Origin: Escherichia phage A7_1
DNA: 64,000 nt
Reading direction: 5' to 3' (one strand)
Sequence record: OP795442
Position 1 is the first letter of the stretch. Every line of letters begins with the position of its first letter. Below the pieces are notes generated by a model. The model searched no databases. It was not told the DNA's origin and was given only the letters and a program-made list of their open reading frames with translations. The position numbers were made by a program, and so were the translations under genes. Shown piece by piece: positions 42,779 to 56,640 of this stretch.

Positions 42779-42870
42779 ACTATAAATGATCTTCCTTTAT
42801 ATGGCAAGGAAAAAGAAAATTAAAAAAGATTGAAAATAATGTTGACGTGGTGAATCTGGTAGCGTAGTAT
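42779..42870. promoter_or_regulatory. divergent promoter pair
   Basis: Rightward TTGACG-17-TAGTAT; leftward TTGCCA-17-TATAGT. Confidence 0.55.
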
Positions 42871-42927
42871 TCATCTCATCGAACGGCGACATGCCAACAA
42901 GTAAACAAATAAAAGGGCAACAACAAA

Positions 42928-43113
42928 ATGAATAAAAGAATTACAAACGTAAATCCTGGCGAACGTTTCCAACATGAGGGGCATTTGCACACTGTAGTAA
43001 GCAACAAAGAGCATACTGTAAGAGTAAATAGAAATATCTTGCAACTTCGCGATCGTTTTGGTATCGTACAGACTTACACTTTCGAAGCAAATAAAACAGT
43101 TAAAACTTTCTGA
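42928..43113 (+). CDS. hypothetical small protein
   Basis: Track ORF, 61 aa. Confidence 0.5.
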   Translation: MNKRITNVNPGERFQHEGHLHTVVSNKEHTVRVNRNILQLRDRFGIVQTYTFEANKTVKTF

Positions 43114-43124
43114 GGATTTTTAAA

Positions 43125-43460
43125 ATGGCACTAGTCACTAAGTATTTCATTGAAGGCCAGCAAGCGGCGCAACAAGGTTACAGCCGTGTTACTCGTTACA
43201 AGAAAGAAGAAAACAAGATTGAATTTTTCAAGGGTTACGATAGTGTAAACCGTGATGCAATGGTCCTACGCTTCGAATCCGATCCAGTGGGCAAGCCTGT
43301 TACCTCTTACCAGGCATCACCGCAGATTGTTTATGTTGGTACTGTTAAAGAATGTAACGACAAGTTAATCACTTTGAAGCAGGCCGATCGTGCGGGTTAC
43401 TTTGTTGTTTACACTGCTGACGGTAAGCCTTACCAGTACGAAAGCAAATATTTTAAATAA
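43125..43460 (+). CDS. hypothetical protein
   Basis: Track ORF, 111 aa. Confidence 0.55.
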   Translation: MALVTKYFIEGQQAAQQGYSRVTRYKKEENKIEFFKGYDSVNRDAMVLRFESDPVGKPVTSYQASPQIVYVGTVKECNDKLITLKQADRAGYFVVYTADGKPYQYESKYFK

Positions 43461-43466
43461 AAAGTA

Positions 43467-43523
43467 TTGACAGAAAGAAAGAAGTAAATTAAATTATACC
43501 ACGTAACGCCGCAATCGTGCGGC
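43467..43523 (+). promoter_or_regulatory. sigma70-like promoter plus 5' GC hairpin cassette
   Basis: TTGACA-17-TAAATT then hairpin gccgca-atcg-tgcggc. Confidence 0.55.
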
Positions 43524-43550
43524 AATAAAAACTGATAGGAATTGAACAAA

Positions 43551-43763
43551 ATGGCTAAAATCATCATTAAAAAATCCCGTGTATCTTCTGTTGCTCGCGT
43601 CGAAATGGTAAACACTATGCCAGGTTACCGGACTCGCGAGGAAGCCCGAAGCGTTGCAAAACAGATTAAAGCCCGTGGCTTAACTGTAAGTGCACCGACC
43701 AAAACACAAGAAGGATGGAAGGTATCTATTAAATCCGGTACACTGTCAATCAATAAACACTAA
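43551..43763 (+). CDS. hypothetical basic small protein
   Basis: Track ORF 43542 has a TTG start; ATG at 43551 (MAKIIIKKSR) is likelier. Confidence 0.5.
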   Translation: MAKIIIKKSRVSSVARVEMVNTMPGYRTREEARSVAKQIKARGLTVSAPTKTQEGWKVSIKSGTLSINKH

Positions 43764-43825
43764 TAGCCAAAACATTAACGGGGCAACTTTGCCCTCATTA
43801 AATAACATTATCCAGGAGTATTAAC

Positions 43826-43984
43826 ATGACTAGCCAAAACACTAACATTGAAAAAATCAACATTACTAAAGAGCGTAAAGCATGGAATGAAACATTAAAT
43901 CTCAAAGGTAAGAAGCTGAATAAAACTAAACGCGATCGCAGTACAAAGCGGGCCTTTTGTGAATTTACAGCGGATCAAGAGTGA
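43826..43984 (+). CDS. small basic protein (about 52 aa, not in track)
   Basis: MTSQNTNIEKINITKERKAWNETLNLKGKK... behind CCAGGAGT SD; approximate. Confidence 0.35.
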   Translation: MTSQNTNIEKINITKERKAWNETLNLKGKKLNKTKRDRSTKRAFCEFTADQE

Positions 43985-44175
43985 TGATTAAAGTTATTGC
44001 ACTTACTGCTTTATTGTGTATACCATTTTTGGCGCACGGTACTAAGTTTTACGGTGCTAACTTGATAGATTGTAAAGCTCATATGCTGGACCATGAAACA
44101 GGCAACAAATTTCTTAAGCCTTTCCAGATCAATCCAGCGGCATTTAGTGACCGGTGTTTTGTATCAGGAAGGTAA
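43984..44175 (+). CDS. small protein with signal-peptide-like N-terminus
   Basis: Track ORF 43981..44175; MIKVIALTALLCIPFLAHG. Confidence 0.45.
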   Translation: MIKVIALTALLCIPFLAHGTKFYGANLIDCKAHMLDHETGNKFLKPFQINPAAFSDRCFVSGR

Positions 44176-44287
44176 AGCCAGTACGCTGATAATGCATTAC
44201 GATCCGACAACAAAGAAAGGTAGTCTATCAATCCAGGTTGGAGAGGTGGAAGAGTTTTCCGGTGAAATAGTCTGTAATTAATATCTT

Positions 44288-44319
44288 GAGGCCCGTCATT
44301 GTACGGGCCTTTTTCTTTT
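44288..44319 (+). terminator. rho-independent terminator
   Basis: aggcccgtcattgtacgggcct followed by T-run. Confidence 0.8.
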
Positions 44320-44343
44320 ATGAAAATAATTTTGAAAATGTTG

Positions 44344-44411
44344 TTGACAGTAAAATCGATTCTGTTAAGATGTATCACATCAGGACGGGGAACGAAGTAA
44401 ACACTCCCCGT
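44344..44411 (+). promoter_or_regulatory. promoter plus hairpin cassette with no downstream ORF
   Basis: TTGACA-16/17-TAAGAT then acgggga...tccccgt hairpin; next start codon is after a second cassette. Confidence 0.5.
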
Positions 44412-44470
44412 TAAGTAGTCCAGGAGTAAGACATACGAAAAACTCCCCTGATAAAAAGATTTAAAAGTGG

Positions 44471-44527
44471 TTGACACAAAATTAAAAACTGTTAAGATGT
44501 ATCACATACGGCGGCAATAGTGCCGCC
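44471..44527 (+). promoter_or_regulatory. promoter plus 5' GC hairpin cassette
   Basis: TTGACA-16-TAAGAT then ggcggca-atag-tgccgcc. Confidence 0.6.
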
Positions 44528-44547
44528 TCCAACAAAGAGAAATTATC

Positions 44548-44799
44548 ATGGCTAACAAAACTAAAACCACTAAAACTTATAACGGTCACAAAAACAAAAA
44601 TCATTGGAACGTTTCTCTATGGCTTAACAATGATTCATCACTTTACCAGCTGGCGAAAGAATTTATTAACGCTAACACTAATCGTAATGATGCGGCGCGG
44701 GATATGATGATTTTTCTGGAACAAACTGGACAATATAAAACTCCAGACGGTTTCAAGTACAGCACTACGGCGATCCGTGCTGCAATGGTTGGAATGTAA
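44548..44799 (+). CDS. hypothetical protein (paralogue of 46366..46605)
   Basis: 83 aa; shares HWNVSLW and C-terminal TPDGFKYSTTAIRAAMVGM. Confidence 0.55.
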   Translation: MANKTKTTKTYNGHKNKNHWNVSLWLNNDSSLYQLAKEFINANTNRNDAARDMMIFLEQTGQYKTPDGFKYSTTAIRAAMVGM

Positions 44800-44817
44800 T
44801 ATTCAATACTGTAACAA

Positions 44818-44836
44818 TGGCGGGATTAGTTCCCGC
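44818..44836 (+). promoter_or_regulatory. 5' leader GC hairpin
   Basis: ggcggga-ttagt-tcccgcc. Confidence 0.5.
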
Positions 44837-44855
44837 CTTTGCGGAGAAATATCTA

Positions 44856-45143
44856 ATGAGCAAAGTAATTGACTGTAAAGTGTTAACCAAATCATTGTCA
44901 ATCAGTGAGTGCACCAATGGTTATTGGCTTTATGATGAAACACGCGGCATGAATCTAGCTATGGAAGCTAAAACGGCTGAGGCGGCGTATGTGCAAGCCC
45001 TGGAATACTACCAGAGACGTTTAAAGGAAGTAGAAAACAATTATCAGAATCTCAAAGAGAAAGTAGATCATTTCGTTGGTCAATTCGTTGACGATGACGA
45101 GGAAGACGGGCACTACTGCAACCGCTGCGGATCTTACAGTTAA
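44856..45143 (+). CDS. hypothetical protein
   Basis: Track ORF 44817 begins inside the hairpin; ATG at about 44856 behind GGAG is likelier (MSKVIDCKVL). Confidence 0.5.
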   Translation: MSKVIDCKVLTKSLSISECTNGYWLYDETRGMNLAMEAKTAEAAYVQALEYYQRRLKEVENNYQNLKEKVDHFVGQFVDDDEEDGHYCNRCGSYS

Positions 45144-45147
45144 GTAC

Positions 45148-45207
45148 TTGCAATTAGTTTTAAGTACTGTATAATGTTTTACATCGAGAGCGGGAATAGT
45201 TCCCGCC
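45148..45207 (+). promoter_or_regulatory. promoter plus 5' GC hairpin cassette
   Basis: TTGCAA-16-TATAAT then gcgggaa-tag-ttcccgc. Confidence 0.6.
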
Positions 45208-45229
45208 TCACATCAAAGAGATTAAAATT

Positions 45230-45457
45230 ATGGCTATCCTTATTGTTCGTGTATCCGGTACAGTTGGTAACTCCCAGGTTGTAGCAGTTGTAACAAGCAA
45301 AAAGATTAATGAATCTTCTAAAATCTTGAACGAATGGGCCGTTGCTAACTTTGGTCAATGGTCGAGCGTCGAGTATCTCGAATCTTACCAGGTGCCAACT
45401 ATTAGCCTAACCGATCTCAATGTTGATCGCCTGTTATGCCTGGATGAATTGATTTAA
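45230..45457 (+). CDS. hypothetical protein
   Basis: Track ORF, 75 aa. Confidence 0.5.
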   Translation: MAILIVRVSGTVGNSQVVAVVTSKKINESSKILNEWAVANFGQWSSVEYLESYQVPTISLTDLNVDRLLCLDELI

Positions 45458-45464
45458 AAAGTAG

Positions 45465-45524
45465 TTGCAAAGTAAAACGAATAAAGTATAATACATTACA
45501 TCAGGGGGAGAAATGATTCTCCCC
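45465..45524 (+). promoter_or_regulatory. promoter plus 5' GC hairpin cassette
   Basis: TTGCAA-16-TATAAT then gggggaga-aatga-ttctcccc. Confidence 0.6.
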
Positions 45525-45541
45525 ACTAAAAGGAAACTAAA

Positions 45542-45685
45542 ATGAAAACTTGTCAGTGTGGTAAAAAGTCTATTGCTGGTCTGCGTCGCGGTGTTGCTTT
45601 ATGCCAGTATCATTACAATAGTCAAGTATGGGGTAAAACGTGGGCTGACCAGGTTGAAGCAGCAAAGAAAGCAAAAAGTAATTGA
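45542..45685 (+). CDS. small Cys-rich protein (about 47 aa, not in track)
   Basis: MKTCQCGKKSIAGLRRGVALCQYHYNSQVW... behind AAGGA SD; the antisense track ORF 45570..45887 is rejected; approximate. Confidence 0.4.
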   Translation: MKTCQCGKKSIAGLRRGVALCQYHYNSQVWGKTWADQVEAAKKAKSN

Positions 45686-45738
45686 CAGCAAGAAGAAAAA
45701 GAGTAAACTGTATTACGTAGGGCGGCAATAGCGCCGCC
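45682..45738 (+). promoter_or_regulatory. promoter plus 5' GC hairpin cassette
   Basis: TTGACA then ggcggc-aatagc-gccgcc. Confidence 0.55.
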
Positions 45739-45762
45739 ACATCAAAGATAGAGAGAATCAAA

Positions 45763-45981
45763 ATGGCCAATATCCGCACTGTACTGAAAAATGCAAAACA
45801 AGTTTTATTTTCTGACGATGAATATTTTAATCGCAATATCAAAGGCGTTCGGAACATTGAGGATGTAAAGGAATTATTTGGAATCAAAGGTAACGTATAT
45901 CGTAAAGGATTGCACGGTAATAATTTTGAATATAAGTTGGCTGATAGTGATTATAATTTTACACTGACCACCATTAGTTGA
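45763..45981 (+). CDS. hypothetical protein
   Basis: Track ORF, 72 aa. Confidence 0.5.
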   Translation: MANIRTVLKNAKQVLFSDDEYFNRNIKGVRNIEDVKELFGIKGNVYRKGLHGNNFEYKLADSDYNFTLTTIS

Positions 45982-46000
45982 AAGTTTTAACCTAGCGCTA

Positions 46001-46029
46001 TTGACTTAAGCCGATAGTGCTGGCATAAT
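46001..46029 (+). promoter_or_regulatory. sigma70-like promoter (copy 1 of a duplicated promoter)
   Basis: TTGACT-17-CATAAT; about 40-bp leader nearly identical to the promoter at 46294. Confidence 0.6.
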
Positions 46030-46061: not shown

Positions 46062-46274
46062 ATGGCTATCATTACTAAAATCAAAGTAAACAAAACACTG
46101 GTTAAGCTGGAAGAAGTGAAAGCAGGTTATAAAGTATCTTGGTGTGGCATGTATCGGATGTTCACAGATATAGACGATGCAATCAATTACTACACTAACA
46201 CGATTAAAAACTTTGTTCGTGCTGATGTGATTATTGCAGTGGAAGCACATAAAGCATCGAAAGAAAGTAAGTAA
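46062..46274 (+). CDS. hypothetical protein
   Basis: Track ORF, 70 aa. Confidence 0.5.
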   Translation: MAIITKIKVNKTLVKLEEVKAGYKVSWCGMYRMFTDIDDAINYYTNTIKNFVRADVIIAVEAHKASKESK

Positions 46275-46293
46275 AATTATTACCACAGTACTA

Positions 46294-46322
46294 TTGACAA
46301 CTACTGATAGTACTGACATAAT
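46294..46322 (+). promoter_or_regulatory. sigma70-like promoter (copy 2 of a duplicated promoter)
   Basis: TTGACA-17-CATAAT followed by the same ataacttttatcaag leader. Confidence 0.6.
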
Positions 46323-46365: not shown

Positions 46366-46605
46366 ATGGCTAAATCTAAAACTTTCAACGATCACAAAAA
46401 CAAAACTCATTGGAATGTTTCCTTGTGGATTAATAATGGTGAAGCACTGTATCGGCTTGCTCAAAATTGCATTGCACAAAGTAAAACTAAAGATATTGCT
46501 GCGGAATGTATGTACCGCAGATTAAAAGCGAACGGCACTACAACAACGCCGGACGGATTTAAGTATAGCACCACTGCGATCCGTGCCGCGATGGTTGGAA
46601 TGTAA
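46366..46605 (+). CDS. hypothetical protein (paralogue of 44548..44799)
   Basis: 79 aa; HWNVSLW and C-terminal TPDGFKYSTTAIRAAMVGM shared. Confidence 0.55.
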   Translation: MAKSKTFNDHKNKTHWNVSLWINNGEALYRLAQNCIAQSKTKDIAAECMYRRLKANGTTTTPDGFKYSTTAIRAAMVGM

Positions 46606-46624
46606 AAAGAAAAAGTAAAAGTAG

Positions 46625-46682
46625 TTGACACAAAGAAACAAAACAAGTAAATTAATCACATCAGGCGGGGAATGGCCCCGCT
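46625..46682 (+). promoter_or_regulatory. promoter plus 5' GC hairpin cassette
   Basis: TTGACA-17-TAAATT then gcgggg-aatgg-ccccgc; nearly identical to the cassette at 48749. Confidence 0.65.
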
Positions 46683-46703
46683 AAAAGAGAAGAGAGAAAT
46701 CAA

Positions 46704-47036
46704 ATGAGCTTTTTATCTATCGTGCAGACTAACTTTGAAAATGATTTTATTGCTCAAGCTATCAACATTGACAAAGGTATCCCAAATATCAATTTTGGTT
46801 TTAATAGTGGTGGTTATGAGAGATACCAGTATTTTGTAACTGACGATGGAAGTGTTTTAGGTATCAATACGGTGATGGCTAATATCCAAAACATTAATTT
46901 CAATGATCCCGATGAGCGCTCATTCTATATCGTCGGTATCCAGGTGAACTACAATGATGACTCTTTAATCGATGATTACACTGGCGAGACGTTAGAGAGT
47001 GCTTACGGTGATGAATCAGAAGAAGAAGAAGAATAA
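46704..47036 (+). CDS. strongly acidic small protein
   Basis: 110 aa; many Asp/Glu, almost no Lys/Arg; ends DESEEEEE. Confidence 0.55.
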   Translation: MSFLSIVQTNFENDFIAQAINIDKGIPNINFGFNSGGYERYQYFVTDDGSVLGINTVMANIQNINFNDPDERSFYIVGIQVNYNDDSLIDDYTGETLESAYGDESEEEEE

Positions 47037-47050
47037 GATTAAAAAAGTAG

Positions 47051-47110
47051 TTGACTGAAAGAGTATAAAGAAGTAAGATAATTAACGAATAGGGGGAAAC
47101 ATCTTCCCCC
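47051..47110 (+). promoter_or_regulatory. promoter plus 5' GC hairpin cassette
   Basis: TTGACT-17-TAAGAT then ggggga-aacatc-ttccccc. Confidence 0.6.
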
Positions 47111-47136
47111 ATAAACAAAAGAAAGAGAGATTAAAA

Positions 47137-47319
47137 ATGACAGAACTGATTGCAACTACAAAGATCGAAGGCGTTAACGATGTTACTTTGTCCTATGATC
47201 CTTCTACTCTGGTTTATGTTGTGAAATATGGCAGAATGATCGCAGAACTTGATTGCATTGATGAGGCTTTCGAAAAATATTTCGAACTTATCAATATTGC
47301 TTATGATGACTACCGTTAA
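47137..47319 (+). CDS. hypothetical protein
   Basis: Track ORF, 60 aa. Confidence 0.5.
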   Translation: MTELIATTKIEGVNDVTLSYDPSTLVYVVKYGRMIAELDCIDEAFEKYFELINIAYDDYR

Positions 47320-47559: not shown

Positions 47560-47596
47560 TTGACTTTTAACATTGCCCCTATTAGTATTCAGGGGC
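47560..47596 (+). promoter_or_regulatory. promoter overlapped by a hairpin
   Basis: TTGACT-17-TAGTAT with gcccct...aggggc stem spanning the -10 element. Confidence 0.5.
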
Positions 47597-48084: not shown

Positions 48085-48112
48085 AAGGCCCGCTATAATG
48101 TGGGCCTTTCTT
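48085..48112 (+). terminator. rho-independent terminator
   Basis: aggcccgctataatgtgggcct then ttcttt. Confidence 0.7.
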
Positions 48113-48733: not shown

Positions 48734-48748
48734 TTTAAAAAAAAGTAG

Positions 48749-48805
48749 TTGACTCGAAGAAACAAAACAAGTAAATTATTCACATCAGGCGGGGAATGGC
48801 CCCGC
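48749..48805 (+). promoter_or_regulatory. promoter plus 5' GC hairpin cassette
   Basis: TTGACT-17-TAAATT then ggcgggg-aatg-gccccgc; duplicate of the cassette at 46625. Confidence 0.65.
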
Positions 48806-48821
48806 TGAACAAAAAGAGATT

Positions 48822-49202
48822 ATGAAAATGGCTAAAAATACTAACGTTTGTGATTACGCTGATCTGGTTACTCTGAATGCAGATTCTAAAATCAACCTGT
48901 CAAACGTGGAAGCGGTGCACGTCCTGGCCCGCCGCTGGTTCCAAAAGTTATATGGTAATACTTATTTCTCTTTAAGTGTAGATGTGGAGATCGCTGGTAA
49001 ATTGGTAGAAGTAGTTAACGTCCCGTTTACATATGGTTATGGTGATCATTTCGATACCGTGGCACTGGAAGAATTTAGCAAGGTTATCAACATGGAAGGA
49101 AAAGAGTTTTCAGAGTATAGTTACCTTTCCCGTTTTTGCCGTGACAATAACATCCCTGTTTATTCGAACGCTGTTGATGTTAAACGCAAAAAAGATATGT
49201 AA
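48822..49202 (+). CDS. hypothetical protein
   Basis: Track ORF, 126 aa. Confidence 0.55.
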   Translation: MKMAKNTNVCDYADLVTLNADSKINLSNVEAVHVLARRWFQKLYGNTYFSLSVDVEIAGKLVEVVNVPFTYGYGDHFDTVALEEFSKVINMEGKEFSEYSYLSRFCRDNNIPVYSNAVDVKRKKDM

Positions 49203-49208
49203 TTATTA

Positions 49209-49267
49209 TTGACAGTACATAGAAAACAAGTAAACGGTATTACATAGAAAGCGGGAACACTTCCCGC
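49209..49267 (+). promoter_or_regulatory. promoter plus 5' GC hairpin cassette
   Basis: TTGACA then gcgggaa-cac-ttcccgc. Confidence 0.55.
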
Positions 49268-49289
49268 TTATATTCCAGGAGTAAGAGAA

Positions 49290-49541
49290 ATGATCGAACA
49301 AATCAAAACTACGACGGCTAATGTAACGGGTACAATATCGCACTTTATTAGTGATGAATCGCGGGGCGTTCCTTATTGTGCAGTACATGTAAACAAAAAT
49401 GGCGACTACTGGTTAACGGCGTATGGATCTTATTCTTTCGGACGTAGTGCACACCAAAAGATCCTGGATAAAGTACAACCAACGGGTAAAAATATTACCG
49501 CTGAGATGTTTAATAAATCACTTGCAAAGTTAAAAGCGTAA
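49290..49541 (+). CDS. hypothetical protein
   Basis: Track ORF, 83 aa. Confidence 0.5.
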   Translation: MIEQIKTTTANVTGTISHFISDESRGVPYCAVHVNKNGDYWLTAYGSYSFGRSAHQKILDKVQPTGKNITAEMFNKSLAKLKA

Positions 49542-49581
49542 AGTATAATACATCACATCAGGCGGGGAGTGTTTCCCCGCC
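49523..49581 (+). promoter_or_regulatory. promoter plus 5' GC hairpin cassette
   Basis: TTGCAA-15-TATAAT then ggcgggga-gtgtt-tccccgcc. Confidence 0.55.
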
Positions 49582-49602
49582 ACAAAATGAAAGGCCAACA
49601 AA

Positions 49603-49782
49603 ATGAAATCAAGCATGATGGTAGCGACTGTAAACATTATCATTGGTAACGGAACTGGACACCACGAAATCATAAAAAACAAGGCTTACTCTATTAGCTC
49701 CCTCAAAAACGACATGCGTTTATCTTTGGGCCAAATCCGCGCTTACTTTCGTGAAGGCTATCAGAAAAAAGTAGCAAATTAA
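49603..49782 (+). CDS. small protein (about 59 aa, not in track)
   Basis: MKSSMMVATVNIIIGNGTGHHEIIKNKAYSISS...; approximate. Confidence 0.4.
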   Translation: MKSSMMVATVNIIIGNGTGHHEIIKNKAYSISSLKNDMRLSLGQIRAYFREGYQKKVAN

Positions 49783-50314: not shown

Positions 50315-50343
50315 TTGACGTTGGCTTGTGCCGTACCTATAAT
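50315..50343 (+). promoter_or_regulatory. sigma70-like promoter
   Basis: TTGACG-17-TATAAT. Confidence 0.6.
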
Positions 50344-50378
50344 GGACGGCATAGGCAAACGAAATAGGATTTATAGAA

Positions 50379-51270: not shown

Positions 51271-51510
51271 ATGCAAACTATTATCACTAAGTTTCTTCCT
51301 CCTACGAATACCCGTGGCGCTCGCATCAAAGCAAAATGTTGGTTGACAGATATCACTATCGCCTATCCGGTAGCCGAGATCAACGAAGCCCATAAACTGG
51401 CGGCAGAAGTGTTAATTACAAAATTGAAGATGACAACAGATATTGATTGGAAAATTGTTGCAAGTGGTGAAACACCGGACGGATCAGGTTATGCATTTAT
51501 CATCAAATAA
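51271..51510 (+). CDS. hypothetical protein
   Basis: Track ORF, 79 aa. Confidence 0.5.
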   Translation: MQTIITKFLPPTNTRGARIKAKCWLTDITIAYPVAEINEAHKLAAEVLITKLKMTTDIDWKIVASGETPDGSGYAFIIK

Positions 51511-51513
51511 TTG

Positions 51514-51569
51514 TTGACAACAGCAAAGTAAGCGCGTAGTATTCATTTTACAGGGGCGACAAGCGCCCC
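51514..51569 (+). promoter_or_regulatory. promoter plus 5' GC hairpin cassette
   Basis: TTGACA-17-TAGTAT then ggggcg-acaa-gcgcccc. Confidence 0.65.
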
Positions 51570-51578
51570 GCTTATCAG

Positions 51579-51860
51579 ATGAGACAAATCATGAAAATAT
51601 CATTGGACGTTGCAATCAAGGCCATCGAATCCGGTTACACTCTGGTTAAGGACGATAAGGCTAAAATCGTGCATCACGTTAACAAGGAAACAGGCGAAAG
51701 CATGATCACATATAAAGCCGCCTACTTTCTCCAATCAGTAGCAGATCCGCGCCTGCAACGCCAGGTTACGGCGGCTATCGCTAAAAAATTATGTGCTTTA
51801 CAAGGTACAAGTTTTAACGAGATCGCCCCGTGTTTTGATTGGTCAAGCTTGAAAAAATAG
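51579..51860 (+). CDS. hypothetical protein
   Basis: Track ORF, 93 aa; start may be the second ATG at about 51591. Confidence 0.5.
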   Translation: MRQIMKISLDVAIKAIESGYTLVKDDKAKIVHHVNKETGESMITYKAAYFLQSVADPRLQRQVTAAIAKKLCALQGTSFNEIAPCFDWSSLKK

Positions 51861-51861
51861 T

Positions 51862-51920
51862 TTGACAATACGCAGTTATCTGGTAAAGTGTACTACATAG
51901 CGCGGAAATACTTCCCGCCA
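51862..51920 (+). promoter_or_regulatory. promoter plus 5' GC hairpin cassette
   Basis: TTGACA then gcgcggaa-ata-cttcccgcc (imperfect). Confidence 0.5.
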
Positions 51921-51937
51921 TTAATGAGGATAATTTA

Positions 51938-52075
51938 ATGAAAACTTTCAACGCAACAGCCTCGACAATTGGTTATATTATTACAGTGCAAGCCGTAGAT
52001 CTGGTAGCAGCAGCAAACAAGATTAAAAGAATGATCCCGCTAGGTAGTGAATTTTCCGTTTGGGAAGTAAAATAA
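51938..52075 (+). CDS. small protein (about 45 aa, not in track)
   Basis: MKTFNATASTIGYIITVQAVDLVAAANKIKRM... behind GAGGA SD; approximate. Confidence 0.35.
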   Translation: MKTFNATASTIGYIITVQAVDLVAAANKIKRMIPLGSEFSVWEVK

Positions 52076-52078
52076 TTC

Positions 52079-52140
52079 TTGACAATAGTTTGTTACTTGA
52101 TAGAATGTATTTCGTAGGGCGGGGCAATGGAGCAACGCCC
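52079..52140 (+). promoter_or_regulatory. promoter plus 5' GC hairpin cassette
   Basis: TTGACA-16-TAGAAT then gggcg...cgccc stem. Confidence 0.55.
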
Positions 52141-52158
52141 ATTAATGAGGCTAGCATC

Positions 52159-52263
52159 ATGTTAGAGAAAATTTTCACGGTTGCAGTGGTTGGCCTGGCG
52201 TTATCGGTTGGAGTGGTTGCAACTATGGCTAATATGATCCTATCTTCCCACGGTATCGGTTAA
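52159..52263 (+). CDS. tiny membrane peptide (about 34 aa)
   Basis: Track ORF 52060 begins at TTG upstream of the promoter; ATG at about 52159 behind GAGG (MLEKIFTVAVVGLALSVGVVATMANMILS). Confidence 0.35.
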   Translation: MLEKIFTVAVVGLALSVGVVATMANMILSSHGIG

Positions 52264-52275: not shown

Positions 52276-52662
52276 ATGAAAACAGAAATCATTATTGAAA
52301 TCATCAACGGTTACAAAGAGGCTTTTATCTTTGCTGAATCAGCCAGGAATCACGAAGGTGATTTTATAGATGACATGACTGATTATGATTTTTCAGATCA
52401 AGCCCAGCAACGGATCATTCGTGACGTGGCGGCTTTTTGTGACGCCAATGATGCCGCTATCTCTGAGGCAATGAGCGACGGCGCAACAGCCAACCAGATC
52501 GGGAATGATTTACATTTTACCCGTAACGGTCACAGCGTAGGCTTTTGGGATCGCCCTGAGATATACACTACTAACACGGCTAACCGTTTGACCAATGCCG
52601 CTAAATTTATGCCAAACGTGTCAGCCTACATTGGGAAAGATAATCTGATTTATATTGAATAA
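52276..52662 (+). CDS. hypothetical acidic protein
   Basis: Track ORF, 128 aa. Confidence 0.55.
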   Translation: MKTEIIIEIINGYKEAFIFAESARNHEGDFIDDMTDYDFSDQAQQRIIRDVAAFCDANDAAISEAMSDGATANQIGNDLHFTRNGHSVGFWDRPEIYTTNTANRLTNAAKFMPNVSAYIGKDNLIYIE

Positions 52663-52668
52663 AAAGTA

Positions 52669-52723
52669 TTGACAAGCTGAATCAACCTGACAAGATGTAT
52701 CACATAGGGGCGATAAACGCCCC
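52669..52723 (+). promoter_or_regulatory. promoter plus 5' GC hairpin cassette
   Basis: TTGACA-17-AAGATG-like -10 then ggggcg-ataaa-cgcccc. Confidence 0.6.
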
Positions 52724-52743
52724 ATAACAGAAAGGGTAATCTT

Positions 52744-52938
52744 ATGACGTTAGCAACATGTACCGGATCAAAAATTGCTTGCTTTGAGTTTATGGAAGAC
52801 TACCACACGACCGCAATCACTGACCAATATATTACAGTGATCACGCGTGACGGTATCGCCTGGCATGTTCCGGTTTATGATGGGGATACCTATGAAGTCA
52901 CCGACAGCGACGGCAATACAGCTATCTTTGTTGTCTAA
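52744..52938 (+). CDS. hypothetical protein
   Basis: Track ORF, 64 aa. Confidence 0.5.
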   Translation: MTLATCTGSKIACFEFMEDYHTTAITDQYITVITRDGIAWHVPVYDGDTYEVTDSDGNTAIFVV

Positions 52939-53177: not shown

Positions 53178-53237
53178 TCGCCACCTAACAGCCTAAATAG
53201 TAGGAGGCAATGCAATCCCTACTCAATGAGAATGGAG

Positions 53238-53264
53238 CGCCCTGGCTTATGCTGGGGCGTTTTA
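53238..53264 (+). terminator. terminator-like hairpin
   Basis: cgccc-tggcttatgctg-gggcg then tttt; approximate. Confidence 0.4.
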
Positions 53265-53294
53265 TGTTGTATGGAAATAATTTAGAAAATAAGC

Positions 53295-53351
53295 TTGACG
53301 CCGGGAATGTTAGCGCGTATAGTTTATCACATAGGGCGGCAATAGTGCCGC
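53295..53351 (+). promoter_or_regulatory. promoter plus 5' GC hairpin cassette
   Basis: TTGACG-17-TATAGT then ggcggc-aatag-tgccgc. Confidence 0.65.
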
Positions 53352-53371
53352 TCATAATTGGAGTAGAGATC

Positions 53372-53545
53372 ATGGCAATTCTGGCGAAAGATGTAAAAGT
53401 AGGTATGACCTTTAATGATTGTGAAGTTGTCTATGTTGCCGCGCACGGCGACGGTATCATTACCATTGAAACAGAACACTTTGATCGAGATTGTGGCGAG
53501 ATGGAATATTTTTCTTGCGAGTATCATGAAAACGATGAGTTTTAA
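53372..53545 (+). CDS. hypothetical small protein
   Basis: ATG at about 53372 behind GGAGTAGAG; track ORF 53210..53545 is the same frame extended upstream through terminator, promoter and hairpin. Confidence 0.45.
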   Translation: MAILAKDVKVGMTFNDCEVVYVAAHGDGIITIETEHFDRDCGEMEYFSCEYHENDEF

Positions 53546-53549
53546 ACTA

Positions 53550-53604
53550 TTGACACTGTAAGTAATTGTGTTAATATTTTTGTGTAGGGCGGCAATGTTG
53601 CCGC
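53550..53604 (+). promoter_or_regulatory. promoter plus 5' GC hairpin cassette
   Basis: TTGACA-16-TAATAT then gggcggc-aatgt-tgccgc. Confidence 0.6.
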
Positions 53605-53625
53605 TCACTGACTGGAGCTATCACC

Positions 53626-54027
53626 ATGACCTTTACAATCACCTCTTACACTGACGTTGCCAGCATTGCTAAAACTTTCGGCCCTGAAGCCCTTAAATAT
53701 GCGGTATCCAATGGTAATCTGACAAAAGAGGAATGTTATCTGATTGGAAGCTGTAAACGTTGGGCGGTATCTCGTAACATCGAGATTGAAAACGTAAATG
53801 ATGGCAACATCGAATATAGCGTTGATGCAGTATTCCAAGTTGTTGATTTAGGTGGTATCTATAATACCAATCTTAATGATGTGCGTATCGTTCGCACTGG
53901 CTTTGGGGCTTATGATGTTCCAGTTCGTGAAGCTATGGAAAAAGGTTATATTAATCCAGCCATTTTAAGCATGATCATGACTGAGGCCAAACAACGTAAC
54001 GAGATACGGGCTATCCTGGGCCTGTAA
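53626..54027 (+). CDS. hypothetical protein
   Basis: Track ORF, 133 aa. Confidence 0.55.
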   Translation: MTFTITSYTDVASIAKTFGPEALKYAVSNGNLTKEECYLIGSCKRWAVSRNIEIENVNDGNIEYSVDAVFQVVDLGGIYNTNLNDVRIVRTGFGAYDVPVREAMEKGYINPAILSMIMTEAKQRNEIRAILGL

Positions 54028-54048
54028 TGAAATATTAATGGAAAACTA

Positions 54049-54101
54049 TTGACACGGATCGTCAATATGCTAATATTTATCACGTAGGGCGGCAACGCCC
54101 C
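54049..54101 (+). promoter_or_regulatory. promoter plus 5' GC hairpin cassette
   Basis: TTGACA-16-TAATAT then gggcg-gcaa-cgccc. Confidence 0.6.
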
Positions 54102-54126
54102 AGATTAATAAAAATAGGAAATAAAT

Positions 54127-54333
54127 ATGACTACTTCAATGATCAGATCTTCCGACATTAAAAAGGCTTTATCTGCATTGCGTTATCATCATAGAATGAA
54201 AGTAATCAACGATGAGAGCTATCTAGATTCATCGTTAGAAAGCGATACGTTGGAAGCCATTTCAAAATTATCTGATTTGCATAAACGCATGACCGAAAGC
54301 AACCGATCCGACTTCATAGGGGGCGAAATATGA
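54127..54333 (+). CDS. hypothetical protein
   Basis: Track ORF, 68 aa. Confidence 0.5.
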   Translation: MTTSMIRSSDIKKALSALRYHHRMKVINDESYLDSSLESDTLEAISKLSDLHKRMTESNRSDFIGGEI

Positions 54334-54590
54334 GCATTGCAATGTTAATCAATACCGTAGAAGAGGCGAAAGCATTAAAGTTACGTGTTGAACTGATTGA
54401 TCAGCCAGGTGGAGATCTCCTTGTACAAATCTATCCCCCAAAGGATGATTCTGGCGCTTATGATTGGTGCTACTCTGACACGTTCGAACAAGTAGACATT
54501 AAAGCAATAACATCATTTATCAATAGGGCTATACTTGAGCAAACGATAGAACTTAACGGGATGTTAAAAACACCCTGGCACATTTACTGA
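54330..54590 (+). CDS. hypothetical protein
   Basis: Track ORF, 86 aa, 4-nt overlap with upstream gene. Confidence 0.5.
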   Translation: MSIAMLINTVEEAKALKLRVELIDQPGGDLLVQIYPPKDDSGAYDWCYSDTFEQVDIKAITSFINRAILEQTIELNGMLKTPWHIY

Positions 54591-54597
54591 GTTCGAC

Positions 54598-54629
54598 AAA
54601 AGGGCTTGACTTGTTCAGCCCTTTTTTGC
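54598..54629 (+). terminator. rho-independent terminator
   Basis: agggcttgacttgttcagccct then tttttt. Confidence 0.8.
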
Positions 54630-54767
54630 TATTCTTATCAAACGGGCGGCACCTGGGAACAGGGGGGAGGTAATCACTGGACGACTCCGCTATATAGTGA
54701 TAGTAAATAGCTATCAATAATCTCCAAAAATAAAATAAAACATATCGAATCTTTACAATTCTTTCTG

Positions 54768-54796
54768 TTGACACAACAACCGCATTACAGTATTAT
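54768..54796 (+). promoter_or_regulatory. sigma70-like promoter driving an ORF-less leader
   Basis: TTGACA-17-TATTAT; no plausible ORF for about 340 nt downstream. Confidence 0.55.
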
Positions 54797-54804
54797 TTAT
54801 CTCG

Positions 54805-55069
54805 TAGGGCAGCGAAGCAGTGATGTAAAGTAGTTACTCTATGATGTAAGTTCTGAGAAGTCGAATCCGATAAAGTATCAGAAAGTTTCTAAGTTTTCGA
54901 ATCGTCCAGATGAAAAAGGCTGGCAAGTGTTGAGAAAGGGCACGTTGAGTAAGTCCTGAACAGGGGCGCTCCTAGACACCTTCTACTGAGATTGCGATCG
55001 AAGTGTTAAACTGTGAGAAACGATAAAGAGTACCAGGAAAGAAAGAAGTAAAAGAAGTGAAAAAGATTG
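54805..55069 (+). ncRNA. candidate non-coding RNA or long untranslated leader
   Basis: Promoter-proximal stretch with no ORF longer than about 10 codons, then a second promoter; inferred from sequence only. Confidence 0.3.
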
Positions 55070-55099
55070 TTGACACGAAGGTAAGTTTTGTACTATTAT
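55070..55099 (+). promoter_or_regulatory. sigma70-like promoter
   Basis: TTGACA-18-TATTAT. Confidence 0.55.
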
Positions 55100-55143
55100 C
55101 TATCTTGTAGGGCAAACTTCAAAAACATTAAAAAGGGTACAAA

Positions 55144-55419
55144 ATGTTACAGCTTAACGCCAAATTAGACAAAGAAATCACTGAATTTTGGGATATGGTA
55201 GTAGCTACAGATGTTGACGGTGTAGCAAGTCCTTACCTCAACAACATCGAATACCACAATGTTGCTGCAATGAATGCAGAATACGCAGAAGAAGGCGGCG
55301 CGGATAAGTTTGCTAAAAGCAACGGTTTCACTGATGCTAACGACATGATGCAATCAGTATTGTGGCAAGCCCAGGAAGATTTTCAAGAAAAAACCCTTGA
55401 ATTCGCCAGACGTTCATAA
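55144..55419 (+). CDS. hypothetical acidic protein
   Basis: Track ORF, 91 aa. Confidence 0.5.
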   Translation: MLQLNAKLDKEITEFWDMVVATDVDGVASPYLNNIEYHNVAAMNAEYAEEGGADKFAKSNGFTDANDMMQSVLWQAQEDFQEKTLEFARRS

Positions 55420-55471
55420 TAGAATAATCAAACGGGCCGAAAGGCCCACTAACTAACCTAACAGGATTATC

Positions 55472-55744
55472 ATGATGAATCGCATCGACCAATTGAAAGT
55501 AGTTCAGCATATGGCCTACCGTATCCTTGAAGTTCAGAAAGGAAGCAAAAAAGAAGTATGTGAGAAAGCGTACAAGGTATTCAGCCATAAATCTGACGAT
55601 TGGAAGTTGCAGAAAGTCAAAAAGGCCGACATTCTGGGCTATCTTGAAGAAGAGATCCGACTTGCAGACCAAAAACAGATTCGTCGTGATGAGGCTGAAC
55701 ATAACCAGGCTTGGAAAGAATGGTTTAAAGGGTACACTAAGTAA
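55472..55744 (+). CDS. hypothetical protein
   Basis: Track ORF, 90 aa. Confidence 0.5.
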   Translation: MMNRIDQLKVVQHMAYRILEVQKGSKKEVCEKAYKVFSHKSDDWKLQKVKKADILGYLEEEIRLADQKQIRRDEAEHNQAWKEWFKGYTK

Positions 55745-55752
55745 TACTAAAA

Positions 55753-55778
55753 CAGGGGTCATATGGCCCCTTTGTAAA
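55753..55778 (+). terminator. terminator-like hairpin
   Basis: aggggtcatatggcccct then ttgtaaat. Confidence 0.55.
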
Positions 55779-55805
55779 TATCCTATTAATTTACAATTTT
55801 CCCTA

Positions 55806-55835
55806 TTGACAGAGAAGTCAGTTTTGCACTATAGT
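55806..55835 (+). promoter_or_regulatory. sigma70-like promoter
   Basis: TTGACA-18-TATAGT. Confidence 0.55.
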
Positions 55836-55875
55836 TAAGTTCCTGGCAGCAAACAACAAAACAAAGGATAATAGC

Positions 55876-56295
55876 ATGAACATCAAATCAACTAATCCAG
55901 CATACTCTTTCGATAACGCCTTTTGTCACGGTAGCGCCGCCAAAGGTTTTGAAATTGATGGTAAACTGGTTATCGTCAATGTTGATGGGGAAGAGGTTGC
56001 AGTTTATCCAGTAGCAGACGTTAAAAGCCGTTTACAATGCCGCATGGATGTTAACGATTATCGCCTTGATCCGGTTCGTGTAGTTGCCCTGGTTCTGGAA
56101 GAGGAAATTAAAGCAATGCAGCACAGCAACAAATTTATCGGCGATGCACAGGACAACATGAAAGTAAGCCGCCACAAAGTTAATGAAGCACTGAAAGATT
56201 TTGGCTTTAAAGATCTAGTTATCAAACGTGATGAAAAATTCCGCTTTCGTAATGATCTGGCAAATCGCTACTATGAAATATATGAAGCACTTTAA
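55876..56295 (+). CDS. hypothetical protein
   Basis: Track ORF, 139 aa. Confidence 0.55.
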   Translation: MNIKSTNPAYSFDNAFCHGSAAKGFEIDGKLVIVNVDGEEVAVYPVADVKSRLQCRMDVNDYRLDPVRVVALVLEEEIKAMQHSNKFIGDAQDNMKVSRHKVNEALKDFGFKDLVIKRDEKFRFRNDLANRYYEIYEAL

Positions 56296-56298
56296 TAA

Positions 56299-56322
56299 AA
56301 AGGCCGCAATAGCGGCCTTTGT
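56299..56322 (+). terminator. terminator-like hairpin
   Basis: aggccgcaatagcggcct then ttgtct. Confidence 0.6.
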
Positions 56323-56325
56323 CTA

Positions 56326-56354
56326 TTGACACCTGGTAAGCATTTCTTTAATAT
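56326..56354 (+). promoter_or_regulatory. sigma70-like promoter
   Basis: TTGACA-17-TAATAT. Confidence 0.6.
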
Positions 56355-56406
56355 GTATCTTGTAGGGCAAGCAATAACGCAAGCCTATAAACAGGACAAA
56401 CTAATC

Positions 56407-56604
56407 ATGACCATCGCTAATGAACTGATCGCTGTACTGAATGAAGCCAAATCTAATGATATCGATGTACAGATTAAAGAGTTACCCAATGGTCTGATCG
56501 GTTGTACTTGCACTTGTGTCGGAAGTGACTACACAGAAGTAAGCTCACTAGAATCTTTGATCCGTCACCTCAAGGCGATAGTAGAAGATTGGAGAATCAT
56601 CTAA
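56407..56604 (+). CDS. hypothetical small protein
   Basis: Track ORF 56326 begins at the TTG of the -35 element; ATG at about 56407 (MTIANELIAVLNEAK) is likelier. Confidence 0.45.
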   Translation: MTIANELIAVLNEAKSNDIDVQIKELPNGLIGCTCTCVGSDYTEVSSLESLIRHLKAIVEDWRII

Positions 56605-56612
56605 TCAACAAA

Positions 56613-56640
56613 GGGGCCGCTATTGCGGCCCTTATTATAT
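56613..56640 (+). terminator. rho-independent terminator ending the rightward array
   Basis: ggggccgctattgcggcccc then ttattatat. Confidence 0.7.

Follow-up and report, generated by a model that had tools for sequence, protein, structure and literature searches.

The window analyzed here is a stretch of 64,000 nucleotides from Escherichia phage A7_1 (sequence record OP795442). On its + strand, at positions 42840..56640, lies an array of small genes (~13 kb) in which a recurring unit, hereafter called the cassette, places a promoter and a GC-rich hairpin ahead of many of the genes. By mapping the proteins of Escherichia phage A5-4 onto the window, and by correcting starts that had been annotated inside cassettes, we counted 44 rightward genes whose products are 22-139 amino acids (aa) in length. 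This number agrees with the approximately 45 proposed in an earlier note on this DNA that was made from the sequence alone. Sequence similarity assigns the window to the genus Septuagintavirus of the Vequintavirinae. Region 42840-56640 is 98.3% identical to A5-4 over its full length and 92-94% identical to phages A73, UPEC06, LTH01, and W70 across 43-86% of its length, and over shorter pieces it has matches in more than 200 phages of ~150 kb. The closest relatives are members of the Vequintavirinae, and A73 and W70 have been placed in the recently named genus Septuagintavirus.

The proteins encoded in the array are essentially unknown, as the earlier note had stated when it recognized no family among them, although four of the 43 proteins scanned against Pfam do exceed the cut-offs. 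These are two DUF7249 paralogues, one DUF7170 protein, and a homologue of the T7 early protein gp1.1 (52 aa, gene 43826-43984; PF08200, E = 8e-9); a few weaker matches fell below the cut-offs. A comparison with PHROG yielded matches for 37 proteins, and all 25 families listed are without a function. The DUF7249 paralogues (genes 44548-44799 and 46366-46605) share 59% aa identity, and each has its own promoter. The segment of the first copy is relocated to behind the second in W70. Next to the gp1.1 gene, A5-4 carries a single 98-aa open reading frame (ORF) where positions 43984-44281 of the window carry two (43984-44175 and 44093-44281) owing to a 1-nt indel near 44152, which is either a frameshift or a sequencing difference.

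Reading every upstream region in the array revealed 31 sigma-70-type promoters, which have the general form TTGAC(A/T/G)-16/17-TAnnnT and lie behind an A-rich tract (AAAAAGTAG). Sites with at least 10 of the 12 consensus bases occur 24 times on the + strand of the array and once on the - strand, compared to 3.3 +/- 1.9 sites (maximum 8) in dinucleotide shuffles. The density of promoters on the + strand is 1.7 per kb in the array versus 0.2 per kb in the rest of the window. When the threshold was lowered to at least 9 of 12 bases and both strands were scanned, 80 sites were found compared to 48.6 +/- 7.2 in shuffles. Most array genes possess a strong host-type promoter of their own.

When the first ~38 nucleotides of each predicted transcript were folded, a stable hairpin was present at 20 of the 31 promoters (dG of -7.8 to -17.7 kcal/mol). 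Eighteen promoters are followed by a clear GC hairpin (median dG of -12.6 kcal/mol) and 3-5 more by a weak one, such that the earlier figure of at least 20 was slightly generous and a count of 18-23 is fair. The stem begins 10-12 nt past the -10 hexamer in all 18 clear hairpins, whatever the stem sequence, and the hairpin occupies approximately positions +3 to +25 of the predicted transcript. Loops are mostly 3-6 nt as first described, but two have 13-14 nt, and the stems range more widely (5-9 bp) than the 6-8 bp first given. A median of 20 nt separates the end of the stem from the ATG, and GTAG or ATAG precedes ~60% of the stems. The four pairs of stem arms that had been quoted as differing in sequence while remaining complementary are all real: ggcggc/gccgcc (at 44510 and 45721), gcgggaa/ttcccgc (45190), gggggaga/ttctcccc (45504), and ggggcg/cgcccc (51553 and 52707).

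One might suppose that these hairpins are chance palindromes, or GC-rich leftovers in an AT-rich region, on which no selection for structure has acted. The census of such elements does not agree with this explanation. Perfect GC hairpins number 34 in the 64 kb versus ~3 in shuffles; 23 of them fall within 42.4-57.2 kb and 17 follow promoters, and those outside the array bear terminator-type A/T flanks. In one scan of the window, a hairpin accompanies 16 of 33 promoter-like sites on the + strand versus only 2 of 26 on the - strand. We also built a covariance model from seven well-aligned cassettes and searched with filters off. It returned 18 matches with E values up to 0.013, every one of them on the + strand between 43455 and 56389, and the 50 kb of the window outside the array gave none. 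In A5-4, the rest of the genome (81.6 kb) likewise gave no match at E <= 0.01, and therefore the cassettes are a property of a single array in a ~145-kb genome. They are real, strand-specific, and confined to the array.

A single near-match of the model was noted elsewhere in the window (33655-33707, + strand; E = 0.02). This site is a promoter ahead of gene 33725-34954, located at the other strand-switch point of the window, where the sign of the GC skew changes (near 32 kb).

All individual elements described below are on the + strand unless noted otherwise; promoters are given as -35 hexamer, spacer length, and -10 hexamer, and hairpins as 5' arm, loop, and 3' arm. The leftmost cassette (43455..43527; TTGACA-17-TAAATT; GCCGCA/atcg/TGCGGC at 43508-43523; 78.1 bits) serves gene 43551-43763. 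An orphan cassette (44332..44415; TTGACA-16-TAAGAT; ACGGGGA/13-nt loop/TCCCCGT) is followed by a Shine-Dalgarno (SD) sequence and then by no start codon, and a small coding sequence is annotated at the corresponding spot in UPEC06. The first DUF7249 gene (44548-44799) has the cassette at 44459..44530 (TTGACA-16-TAAGAT; GGCGGCA/atag/TGCCGCC at 44510-44527). Behind this gene, the hairpin at 44819..44837 (GGCGGGA/ttagt/TCCCGCC) has no convincing promoter, and the start codon that follows it is likely the one at 44856. Two cassettes with TTGCAA-16-TATAAT promoters come next. The first (45136..45210), which is TG-extended and has GCGGGAA/tag/TTCCCGC at 45190-45206, precedes gene 45230-45457, and the second (45453..45527), with GGGGGAGA/aatga/TTCTCCCC, precedes gene 45542-45685. 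Gene 45763-45981 is served by the cassette at 45670..45741 (TTGACA-16-TAAACT; GTAG followed by GGCGGC/aatagc/GCCGCC at 45721-45738; 82.7 bits).

Two promoters without a hairpin are near-repeats of each other: 46001..46029 (TTGACT-17-CATAAT, TG-extended; gene 46062-46274) and 46294..46322 (TTGACA-17-CATAAT; the DUF7249 paralogue gene 46366-46605). The hairpin GGCGGGG/aatgg/CCCCGCT is found twice, at 46664-46682 in cassette 46613..46685 (TTGACA-17-TAAATT; gene 46704-47036) and at 48788-48806 in cassette 48737..48809 (TTGACT-17-TAAATT; gene 48822-49202). Between these two lies cassette 47039..47113 (TTGACT-17-TAAGAT; GGGGGAA/acatc/TTCCCCC at 47092-47110; gene 47137-47319). Farther along are the cassettes at 49197..49272 (TTGACA-16-TAAACG; AAGCGGGAA/cac/TTCCCGCTT at 49249-49269; gene 49290-49541) and 49510..49584 (TTGCAA-16-TATAAT; GGCGGGGA/gtgtt/TCCCCGCC at 49561-49581; gene 49603-49782). 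The cassette at 51502..51575 (TTGACA-17-TAGTAT; GGGGCG/acaag/CGCCCC at 51553-51569) precedes gene 51579-51860. It is followed by a cassette with an imperfect stem (51850..51922; TTGACA-16-TAAAGT; GCG(C)GGAA/atac/TTCCCGC; gene 51938-52075) and by one with a long loop (52066..52143; TTGACA-16-TAGAAT; GTAG and then GGGCG/14-nt loop/CGCCC; gene 52159-52263).

The cassette at 52657..52726 (TTGACA-16-CAAGAT; ATAG followed by GGGGCG/ataaa/CGCCCC at 52707-52723) belongs to gene 52744-52938. Two cassettes then share the same stem arms, with ATAG before GGGCGGCA/atag/TGCCGCTC (53334-53353) in 53283..53356 (TTGACG-17-TATAGT) and GTAG before GGGCGGCA/atgt/TGCCGCTC (53587-53606) in 53538..53609 (TTGACA-16-TAATAT; gene 53626-54027). 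Gene 54127-54333 follows the cassette at 54037..54102 (TTGACA-16-TAATAT; GTAG and then GGGCG/gcaa/CGCCC at 54087-54100). The right end of the array has three promoters without a hairpin. Two of them continue into GTAGGGC, namely 54768..54796 (TTGACA-17-TATTAT; no downstream ORF) and 55070..55099 (TTGACA-18-TATTAT; gene 55144-55419), and the third is 55806..55835 (TTGACA-18-TATAGT; gene 55876-56295). The last, weak cassette (56324..56389; TTGACA-17-TAATAT; GTAGGGC start; imperfect stem; gene 56407-56604) was matched by the model at E values of 0.013 for the whole window and 0.003 for the array.

Several annotated gene starts are affected by these elements. The A5-4 starts that correspond to window positions 44817, 52105, and 53249 fall inside cassettes (in the hairpin, in the -10 box, and upstream of the promoter, respectively), and the starts backed by an SD sequence are 44856, 52159, and 53372. 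The cassette at 53283..53356 serves ORF 53372-53545 (57 aa), which is the end of a 111-aa ORF (53210-53545) that has a strong AGGAGG SD sequence and passes in frame through the complete cassette (promoter 53295, hairpin 53334-53353). Position 53249, annotated in A5-4, is a third start for this frame. The arrangement could yield nested long and short products, or it could be a gene interrupted by a cassette. Genes 54127-54333 and 48127-354 are missing from the A5-4 annotation, in which a minus-strand ORF was called instead of the latter.

Support for selection on the hairpin structure comes from comparisons among cassettes. A plain MAFFT alignment misaligned both stem arms and was excluded from pair counts. 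After fitting of the 18 window cassettes to the model, standard pairs account for 91.7% of the stem cells in the alignment, versus 74.0 +/- 2.3% when the 3' letters are permuted inside each column, and not one of 500 shuffles attains the observed figure. Two-sided changes are present at six of seven pairs, the covariation score is 0.436 versus 0.146, and pairing falls to 21-75% when the partner is slid by 1-3 columns. We found 70 further cassettes in A73, UPEC06, LTH01, W70, and Phapecoctavirus tuntematon, all on the gene strand. The 66 distinct cassettes of these five relatives give 92.4% pairing versus 77.7% in shuffles, with two-sided changes at all seven pairs.

These alignments lean toward the structure of the model and the copies are related, both of which inflate shuffle-based scores and so weigh against taking them at face value. 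Therefore, we added an alignment-free test in which the 5' arm and loop of one cassette were joined to the 3' arm of another. There are 14 distinct 5' arms among the 18 cassettes. The native hairpins have a mean of -12.8 kcal/mol versus -8.1 for the chimeras, and none of 10,000 permutations reached the native mean.

Orthologous cassettes provide individual examples of the same process. The G-C pair at 45194/45202 is a C-G pair in the UPEC06 and LTH01 orthologue (GCGGCA/atag/TGCCGC), and the A-T pair at 49250/49268 is G-C in LTH01. The basal pair 46664/46682 is G.U in the window, A-U in UPEC06, and G-C in LTH01. Further wobble changes occur elsewhere among orthologues, and those of cassette 47051 (within 47039..47113) differ by a paired deletion. 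Set against these compensatory events are three or four changes that are not compensated, most of which affect terminal or loop-closing positions. Among six Septuagintavirus genomes, the fraction of variable columns is 0.20 in the upstream tract, 0.02 in the -35 element, 0.20 in the spacer, 0.03 in the -10 element, and 0.04 in the start region, followed by 0.08 and 0.14 in the two stem arms, 0.19 in the loop, and 0.13 in the leader. This is how functional promoters would be expected to vary when their start site is constrained and the adjoining stem is held by its structure. The -35, -10, and start regions are under purifying selection, and the pairing of the stem is kept while its sequence changes.

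Short stems, related copies, and a G+C bias that alone gives 74-78% apparent pairing can be cited in favor of chance palindromes. Regardless, the shuffle and chimera permutations (0 of 500 and 0 of 10,000), the collapse of the slid controls, and the compensatory changes, along with the hairpin counts described above, refute that explanation, to which we attach almost no weight. The suggestion in the earlier note that the stems covary under selection for structure is thus upheld, as the covariation exceeds what GC bias produces in shuffles.

The cassettes also coincide with differences in gene content between relatives, a comparison that had been proposed as a check. BLAST alignment of the array with the four diverged relatives yielded 18 clusters of homology breakpoints, of which 14 are in or no more than 5 nt from a cassette. 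Cassettes with this 5-nt tolerance make up 18% of the region (binomial p = 6e-8). The p value is 0.01 under a null in which breakpoints are confined to noncoding DNA, because cassettes constitute 57% of the noncoding DNA. Specific junctions include the left end (49537) of a 7-kb deletion in W70, which lies in cassette 49510-49584, and the end of homology with A73, UPEC06, and LTH01 at 51511, in cassette 51502..51575. Likewise, breakpoints at 52113-52122 are in cassette 52066..52143 and those at 52674-52734 are at cassette 52657..52726.

In some cases the exchange itself can be read. A73 is without gene 53372-53545 and has one chimeric cassette, whose promoter half resembles 53295 and whose downstream half equals 53550; the switch took place within the common TAGGGCGGCAAT..TGCCGCTCA hairpin. 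Gene 46062-46274 is missing in A73, UPEC06, and LTH01, and the A73 promoter at this location combines the near-identical promoters 46001 and 46294 in a chimera that has its junction in CATAATAACTTTTATCAAG. Gene 53626 has four unrelated promoter halves in four relatives combined with one common hairpin and leader, and gene order differs between this phage and tuntematon. At the DNA level, the gene content of relatives diverges at the cassettes, by homologous exchange of one cassette with another.

Active mobility would be another means to produce such junctions. Repetitive extragenic palindromic (REP) elements carry GTAG directly 5' of a GC-rich palindrome, are extragenic and multicopy, and are substrates of REP-associated tyrosine transposases (RAYTs). 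The GTAG and palindrome of the cassettes, which are formally REP-like, might thus be a site for a REP/RAYT-like, integron-like, or homing-nuclease enzyme that moves single-gene cassettes with the promoter carried along. The crossover inside the hairpin and the one-gene indels flanked by cassettes fit this idea. In addition, mini-circles have been detected by Arbiol et al. for the promoter-early stem-loop (PeSL) elements of T4-type phages (PMC2839356). However, the hairpinless promoter repeats also host crossovers, which fits plain homologous recombination, and neither Pfam nor PHROG indicated a transposase or integrase family among the array proteins. GTAG or ATAG is missing from ~40% of cassettes, and a blastn search of 5,426 Escherichia coli genomes with the cassette motif (E <= 10) gave no match. 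Unlike REP elements, the cassettes have much shorter stems, are co-oriented with genes, and are coupled to promoters. A REP-like origin was therefore rejected on the basis of the E. coli search and the incomplete presence of GTAG/ATAG, and active mobility in general strikes us as very unlikely.

PeSLs are the known elements that most invite comparison, and the earlier note had found that the layout of the cassettes matches theirs. As defined previously (Arbiol et al. 2010, PMC2839356), a PeSL has a sigma-70 promoter, an AT-rich upstream sequence, and a G(n)-loop-C(n) stem-loop that is mostly between the -35 and -10 elements or over the -10 element. PeSL copies recombine, shuffle ORFans, and make mini-circles (PMC2839356; PMC4122927). 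We read the upstream regions of 23 genes in the hyperplastic regions of phage RB49 and observed PeSLs as described, for example TTGACAGGGGATCggtGATCCCCTATAAT, and TTGACA..GGGAGTAgtaagaTACTCCC with the -10 element in the loop. Array cassettes resemble the PeSLs of RB49 and phi1 in combining an A-rich tract, a near-consensus TTGACA-N17-TATAAT promoter, a GC stem-loop, and the SD sequence and ATG of a small ORFan. Both types of element also cluster in a hyperplastic region, flank indels of close relatives, and have copies that recombine, and the upstream sequence AAAAAGT(T/A)GTTGACA (AAAAAGTNGTTGACA) is common to the two.

The location of the stem-loop differs. Since that of RB49 is in the spacer or around the -10 element, it is outside the transcript of its own promoter. 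Unlike this terminator stem-loop within a promoter, the array hairpin begins 10-12 nt past the -10 element, is predicted to be transcribed, and has no T-run. None of the 18 clear hairpins is within, overlapping, or upstream of the promoter or just before the start site. Only two array promoters have the RB49 geometry, namely 47560..47596 (TTGACT-17-TAGTAT), whose -10 element is in the loop of GCCCCT...AGGGGC (47575-47596), and 50315..50350 (TTGACG-17-TATAAT), whose -10 element is in the loop of GCCGT...ACGGC (50330-50350). When 50 kb of RB49 was searched with the cassette model, nothing was found at E < 0.01, and the best alignments covered only the promoter with the hairpin segment deleted. 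The RB49 PeSLs were therefore rejected as true homologues of the cassettes. Thus, the comparison with PeSLs holds for the layout, the hyperplastic setting rich in ORFans, and the breakpoints, but not for the place of the hairpin, which in the array does not have the appearance of a terminator.

Other comparisons are likewise partial. The PeSLs and PmSLs of phages T4/PST and KVP40/nt-1 are also composites of promoter and stem-loop at points of gene exchange, and the version of the motif varies from lineage to lineage (Comeau et al. 2014, PMC4122927). Their motifs differ from the cassettes in having a lineage-specific promoter consensus (TTTACW, TTGYVH, or Mot boxes) and A/T-flanked stems of the form A3-4G3...C3T3-4, and in being described as terminator/promoter composites. 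RB49 PeSLs occur in the Straboviridae, whereas the cassette lineages belong to the Vequintavirinae and Stephanstirmvirinae. Even so, genes are shared: 53626-54027 is homologous to RB49p225 (RB49 17022-17420; 33% identity, E = 1e-17) and 55144-55419 to RB49p266 (RB49 45405-45677; 31% identity, E = 7e-5), and both RB49 homologues sit beside PeSLs in hyperplastic regions. The annotation of phage rV5 lists six RB49-like proteins in the stretch we retrieved, several of them in the small-gene array. These homologues and the RB49-like proteins of rV5 suggest a common pool from which both lineages take genes.

The host-takeover module of Bacillus phage SPO1 and the early region of phage T7 are also dense in tiny early genes with strong host-type promoters, and the array, which includes the gp1.1 homologue, resembles them in this respect. 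SPO1 units pair promoters with terminators, and T7 has one promoter cluster and intergenic RNase III sites. Neither is known to place a hairpin at the head of every transcript.

Our interpretation is that the array would be an early accessory-gene region driven by host RNA polymerase and built of repeated ~75-nt expression cassettes. In order, each cassette comprises the A-rich tract, a near-consensus sigma-70 promoter, a start region of the form CAC-R-T-A/C-R, a GC hairpin of 5-9 bp, and an SD sequence and ATG ~20 nt farther on. We infer that the genes are early from their promoters, which follow the host type without modification. The hairpin, which begins ~3-6 nt into the predicted transcript, would act in the RNA made from its own promoter by providing each cassette mRNA with a uniform 5' end that is protected and insulated. 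It may limit the 5'-end-dependent decay that involves RppH and RNase E, and it may shield the leader and SD sequence from base pairing with variable coding regions. In read-through RNA from upstream promoters, the same hairpin could be an intercistronic barrier to exonucleases. The cassettes would, in addition, be shuffling modules as PeSLs are, with a different role for the hairpin. We judge this composite reading, in which early expression cassettes with a transcribed 5' hairpin are also substrates for homologous recombination, to be somewhat better than an even proposition.

Protection or insulation of the mRNA 5' end is the most likely function of the hairpin itself. A role in its own transcript is indicated by the constant distance to the -10 element despite 14 different 5' arms, the conserved start region, and the lack of a T-run. 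5'-terminal stem-loops are known to stabilize E. coli mRNAs (Emory 1992, Bouvet and Belasco 1992, Arnold 1998, cited in PMC3997798). As in the ompA and papA stabilizers, a stable stem-loop would be positioned a few nucleotides from the mRNA 5' end, upstream of and apart from the SD sequence. However, ompA and papA are single genes with mapped ends, whereas the start sites of the cassettes are predicted, and their 3-6 unpaired nucleotides are maybe too many for full protection.

Several observations weigh against this interpretation. Approximately 10 array promoters have no hairpin. The transcript start is predicted from the position of the -10 element alone (6-8 nt downstream, which leaves a 3-6-nt leader). 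The predicted single-stranded leader may be of sufficient length for RppH; in Bacillus subtilis, the enzyme is reported to need at least two unpaired nucleotides (PMC3997798). In the course of scanning, RNase E passes a simple stem-loop with ease (PMC9943677), and therefore any protection would have to depend on how near the hairpin is to the 5' end. In the model-aligned stems, G.U and A.C occupy nearly equal numbers of cells (33 versus 34), and the non-Watson-Crick cells are at outermost and loop-closing positions, so these counts do not single out the RNA strand as the target of selection. 5' hairpins are missing from the terminator-bearing part of the array, and a role on transcripts from upstream is therefore conceivable. 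Finally, A73 (L002), at ~10940-10990 and ~12370-12405, and two other relatives (L003 and L004), at the same places, have a promoterless hairpin (GGGCGGCAACGCCC, with a GCAA loop) directly past the upstream stop codon, ahead of orthologues of window genes 52744 and 54127. A hairpin retained without a promoter in relatives is not strictly tied to a start site.

These last points favor the view that the hairpin acts on upstream transcripts, either as a terminator or attenuator or by forming or protecting the 3' end for the preceding gene, in which case its place past the next promoter is incidental. There is precedent in the stem-loop of RB49 PeSL211/210, which cut read-through as strongly as rrnB T1 (PMC2839356). 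Furthermore, T-run terminators are few where 5' hairpins are dense, and the region at 55-56.6 kb is arranged as promoter-gene-terminator units with hairpinless promoters. The terminators that the phage does use have a different appearance. Those at 44288..44311 (9-bp stem and T-run) and 48085..48108 (9-bp stem and T-rich tail) are classical intrinsic terminators, in contrast to the cassette hairpins. Another at 54600..54627, behind gene 54330-54590, consists of AAGGGCT/10-nt loop/AGCCCTT and six T residues; its loop exceeds the limit of the scanner and it was read by eye. A terminator-like hairpin at 56299..56320 (AAAGGCCGC/aata/GCGGCCTTT) stands behind gene 55876-56295.

The 8 nt past such true terminators in the window contain 5-7 T residues, whereas those past the cassette stems contain 0-3 and usually 1, and the + strand terminator scan flagged none of the cassette hairpins. 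On sequence grounds, the cassette hairpins therefore do not look like intrinsic terminators. Moreover, a terminator downstream of the next start site would leave that promoter unshielded, and the constant 10-12-nt distance from the -10 element points to the start site of the cassette itself. An action on upstream transcripts is consequently a minority possibility in our estimate, but one with appreciable weight.

A further alternative is that the hairpin and its RTAG or ATCAG leader form an operator for an RNA- or DNA-binding factor of phage or host, which would control the entire early array in a coordinated way, for example through shut-off, antitermination, or selective decay. In agreement with an operator, RTAGGGCGGCAAT(G/A)GTGCCGCYCA is near-identical in many cassettes across two subfamilies, the AATGG loop form is present in 10 of 19 listed tuntematon cassettes, the start region is conserved like the promoter hexamers, and cassettes are found in one array only. 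Yet the 82 distinct cassettes have 30 loop types, which is too varied for one sequence-specific partner, and gene conversion between cassettes explains the near-identity equally well. In addition, the Pfam and PHROG scans of the array proteins brought up no candidate binding protein and no known domains. We consider an operator improbable. Similarly doubtful is the broader proposal that the hairpin and RTAG leader are the recognition element of a dedicated system, whether for mobile cassettes of a REP/RAYT-like or integron-like kind, even between unrelated coliphages, or for co-regulation of the array.

The cassette also occurs in other phages. A 93-nt cassette matches 134 phage records, and the 40 that we listed, a spread of these matches, are myoviruses with genomes of 131-159 kb, including Phapecoctavirus, Justusliebigvirus phi92, Vequintavirus FV3, and Septuagintavirus. 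Among these listed matches, most are in unannotated intergenic DNA. Multiple copies of the exact core motif occur in just three large IMG/VR contigs (97-153 kb). When the window scan for promoters with hairpins was applied to relatives, 19 of 26 promoters in tuntematon and 7 of 22 in the rV5 array had one. Those of rV5 include the published promoters P168, P174, P185, and P194, whose sequences in the rV5 paper end just past the -10 element, and hairpins are unmentioned there. Only ribosome-binding sites are annotated in the 5 kb of the phi92 record that we inspected, and the words promoter, hairpin, stem-loop, and terminator are all missing from the Septuagintavirus paper (PMC11370258). A transcriptome of a Vequintavirinae phage did not turn up in our literature search. 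The cassette is thus undescribed for this phage group in the literature searched, which did not include the PVP-SE1 genome paper. It is also unannotated in all records inspected, and by sequence matching it occurs in Septuagintavirus, Phapecoctavirus, Justusliebigvirus, and sparsely in rV5.

Additional features of the window were noted in and around the array. The 540 or so nucleotides from 54600 to 55140 contain no ORF of at least 30 aa, and the strong promoter at 54768, with a transcript start of GTAGGGC, has no gene before the next promoter at 55070. The ORF-less transcript (54804-55069) was considered as a structured noncoding RNA and rejected, given a fold z-score of +1.5 and no Rfam match. 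A search of the whole window with Rfam 15 covariance models gave no match at the gathering score, a search of 54.5-58.2 kb at E <= 1 gave nothing except two chance-level matches, and a scan of the window for tRNAs and tmRNA found none. The array is closed by a GC hairpin at 56614..56631 (GGGCCGC/tatt/GCGGCCC), which the terminator scan scores on the - strand.

The adjoining segment (56640-58300) is poor in ORFs, and both gene direction and GC skew switch there. It contains C/T-rich tracts, direct repeats (56787/57133 and 56839/57269; ATTGCCAGAGTATGGNGG), and an inverted repeat of 21 nt whose arms are 56876-56896 and 56960-56980. Tandem 21-mers lie at 58065-58106, and two 21-mers at 58169-58218 are palindromic. 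This segment may be an origin or control region, and the genome map in the rV5 paper has a "non-coding" box. Minus-strand terminators in 1-32000 (e.g., 10727, 19760, 61329) reuse the stem-loop AAACC(G/A)CC-CGAA-GG(C/T)GGTTT, which on the transcribed strand of these leftward genes has a UUCG tetraloop and a T-run.

Upstream of the array and on the opposite strand, Pfam identifies a family A DNA polymerase (11283-13937, above the cut-off) and a PIF1 helicase. The protein encoded at 19793-20902, also on the opposite strand, has a DnaB-type helicase domain match of 26.0 bits, just below the Pfam cut-off of 27 bits. The remark in the earlier note that the replication module is T7-like is fair given these matches and because the annotation of rV5 names a T7-like polymerase and primase/helicase.

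The PeSL-type layout and the shuffling of genes between such elements were already known. What differs here, as far as the sequences indicate, is the hairpin, which lies in the predicted transcript and no longer within the promoter. Small early ORFans of large virulent phages, which are thought to function in host takeover and anti-defense, sit in hyperplastic regions. Detailed knowledge of how such regions are expressed and reshuffled has been limited to T4-type phages. The sequences examined here show that coliphages of another, unrelated group, in wide use in therapy and in defense-system screens, build an equivalent region from a repeated promoter-hairpin cassette. The cassette provides a handle with which ~20-30 transcription units per genome could be annotated and gene starts such as 44817, 52105, and 53249 corrected. 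Since one promoter type is combined with many stems or with none, the array may also be a natural experiment on the effect of a 5'-proximal hairpin. Furthermore, the mapped crossovers explain the gain and loss of genes among relatives, and they may offer a ready design for inserting genes into these phages.

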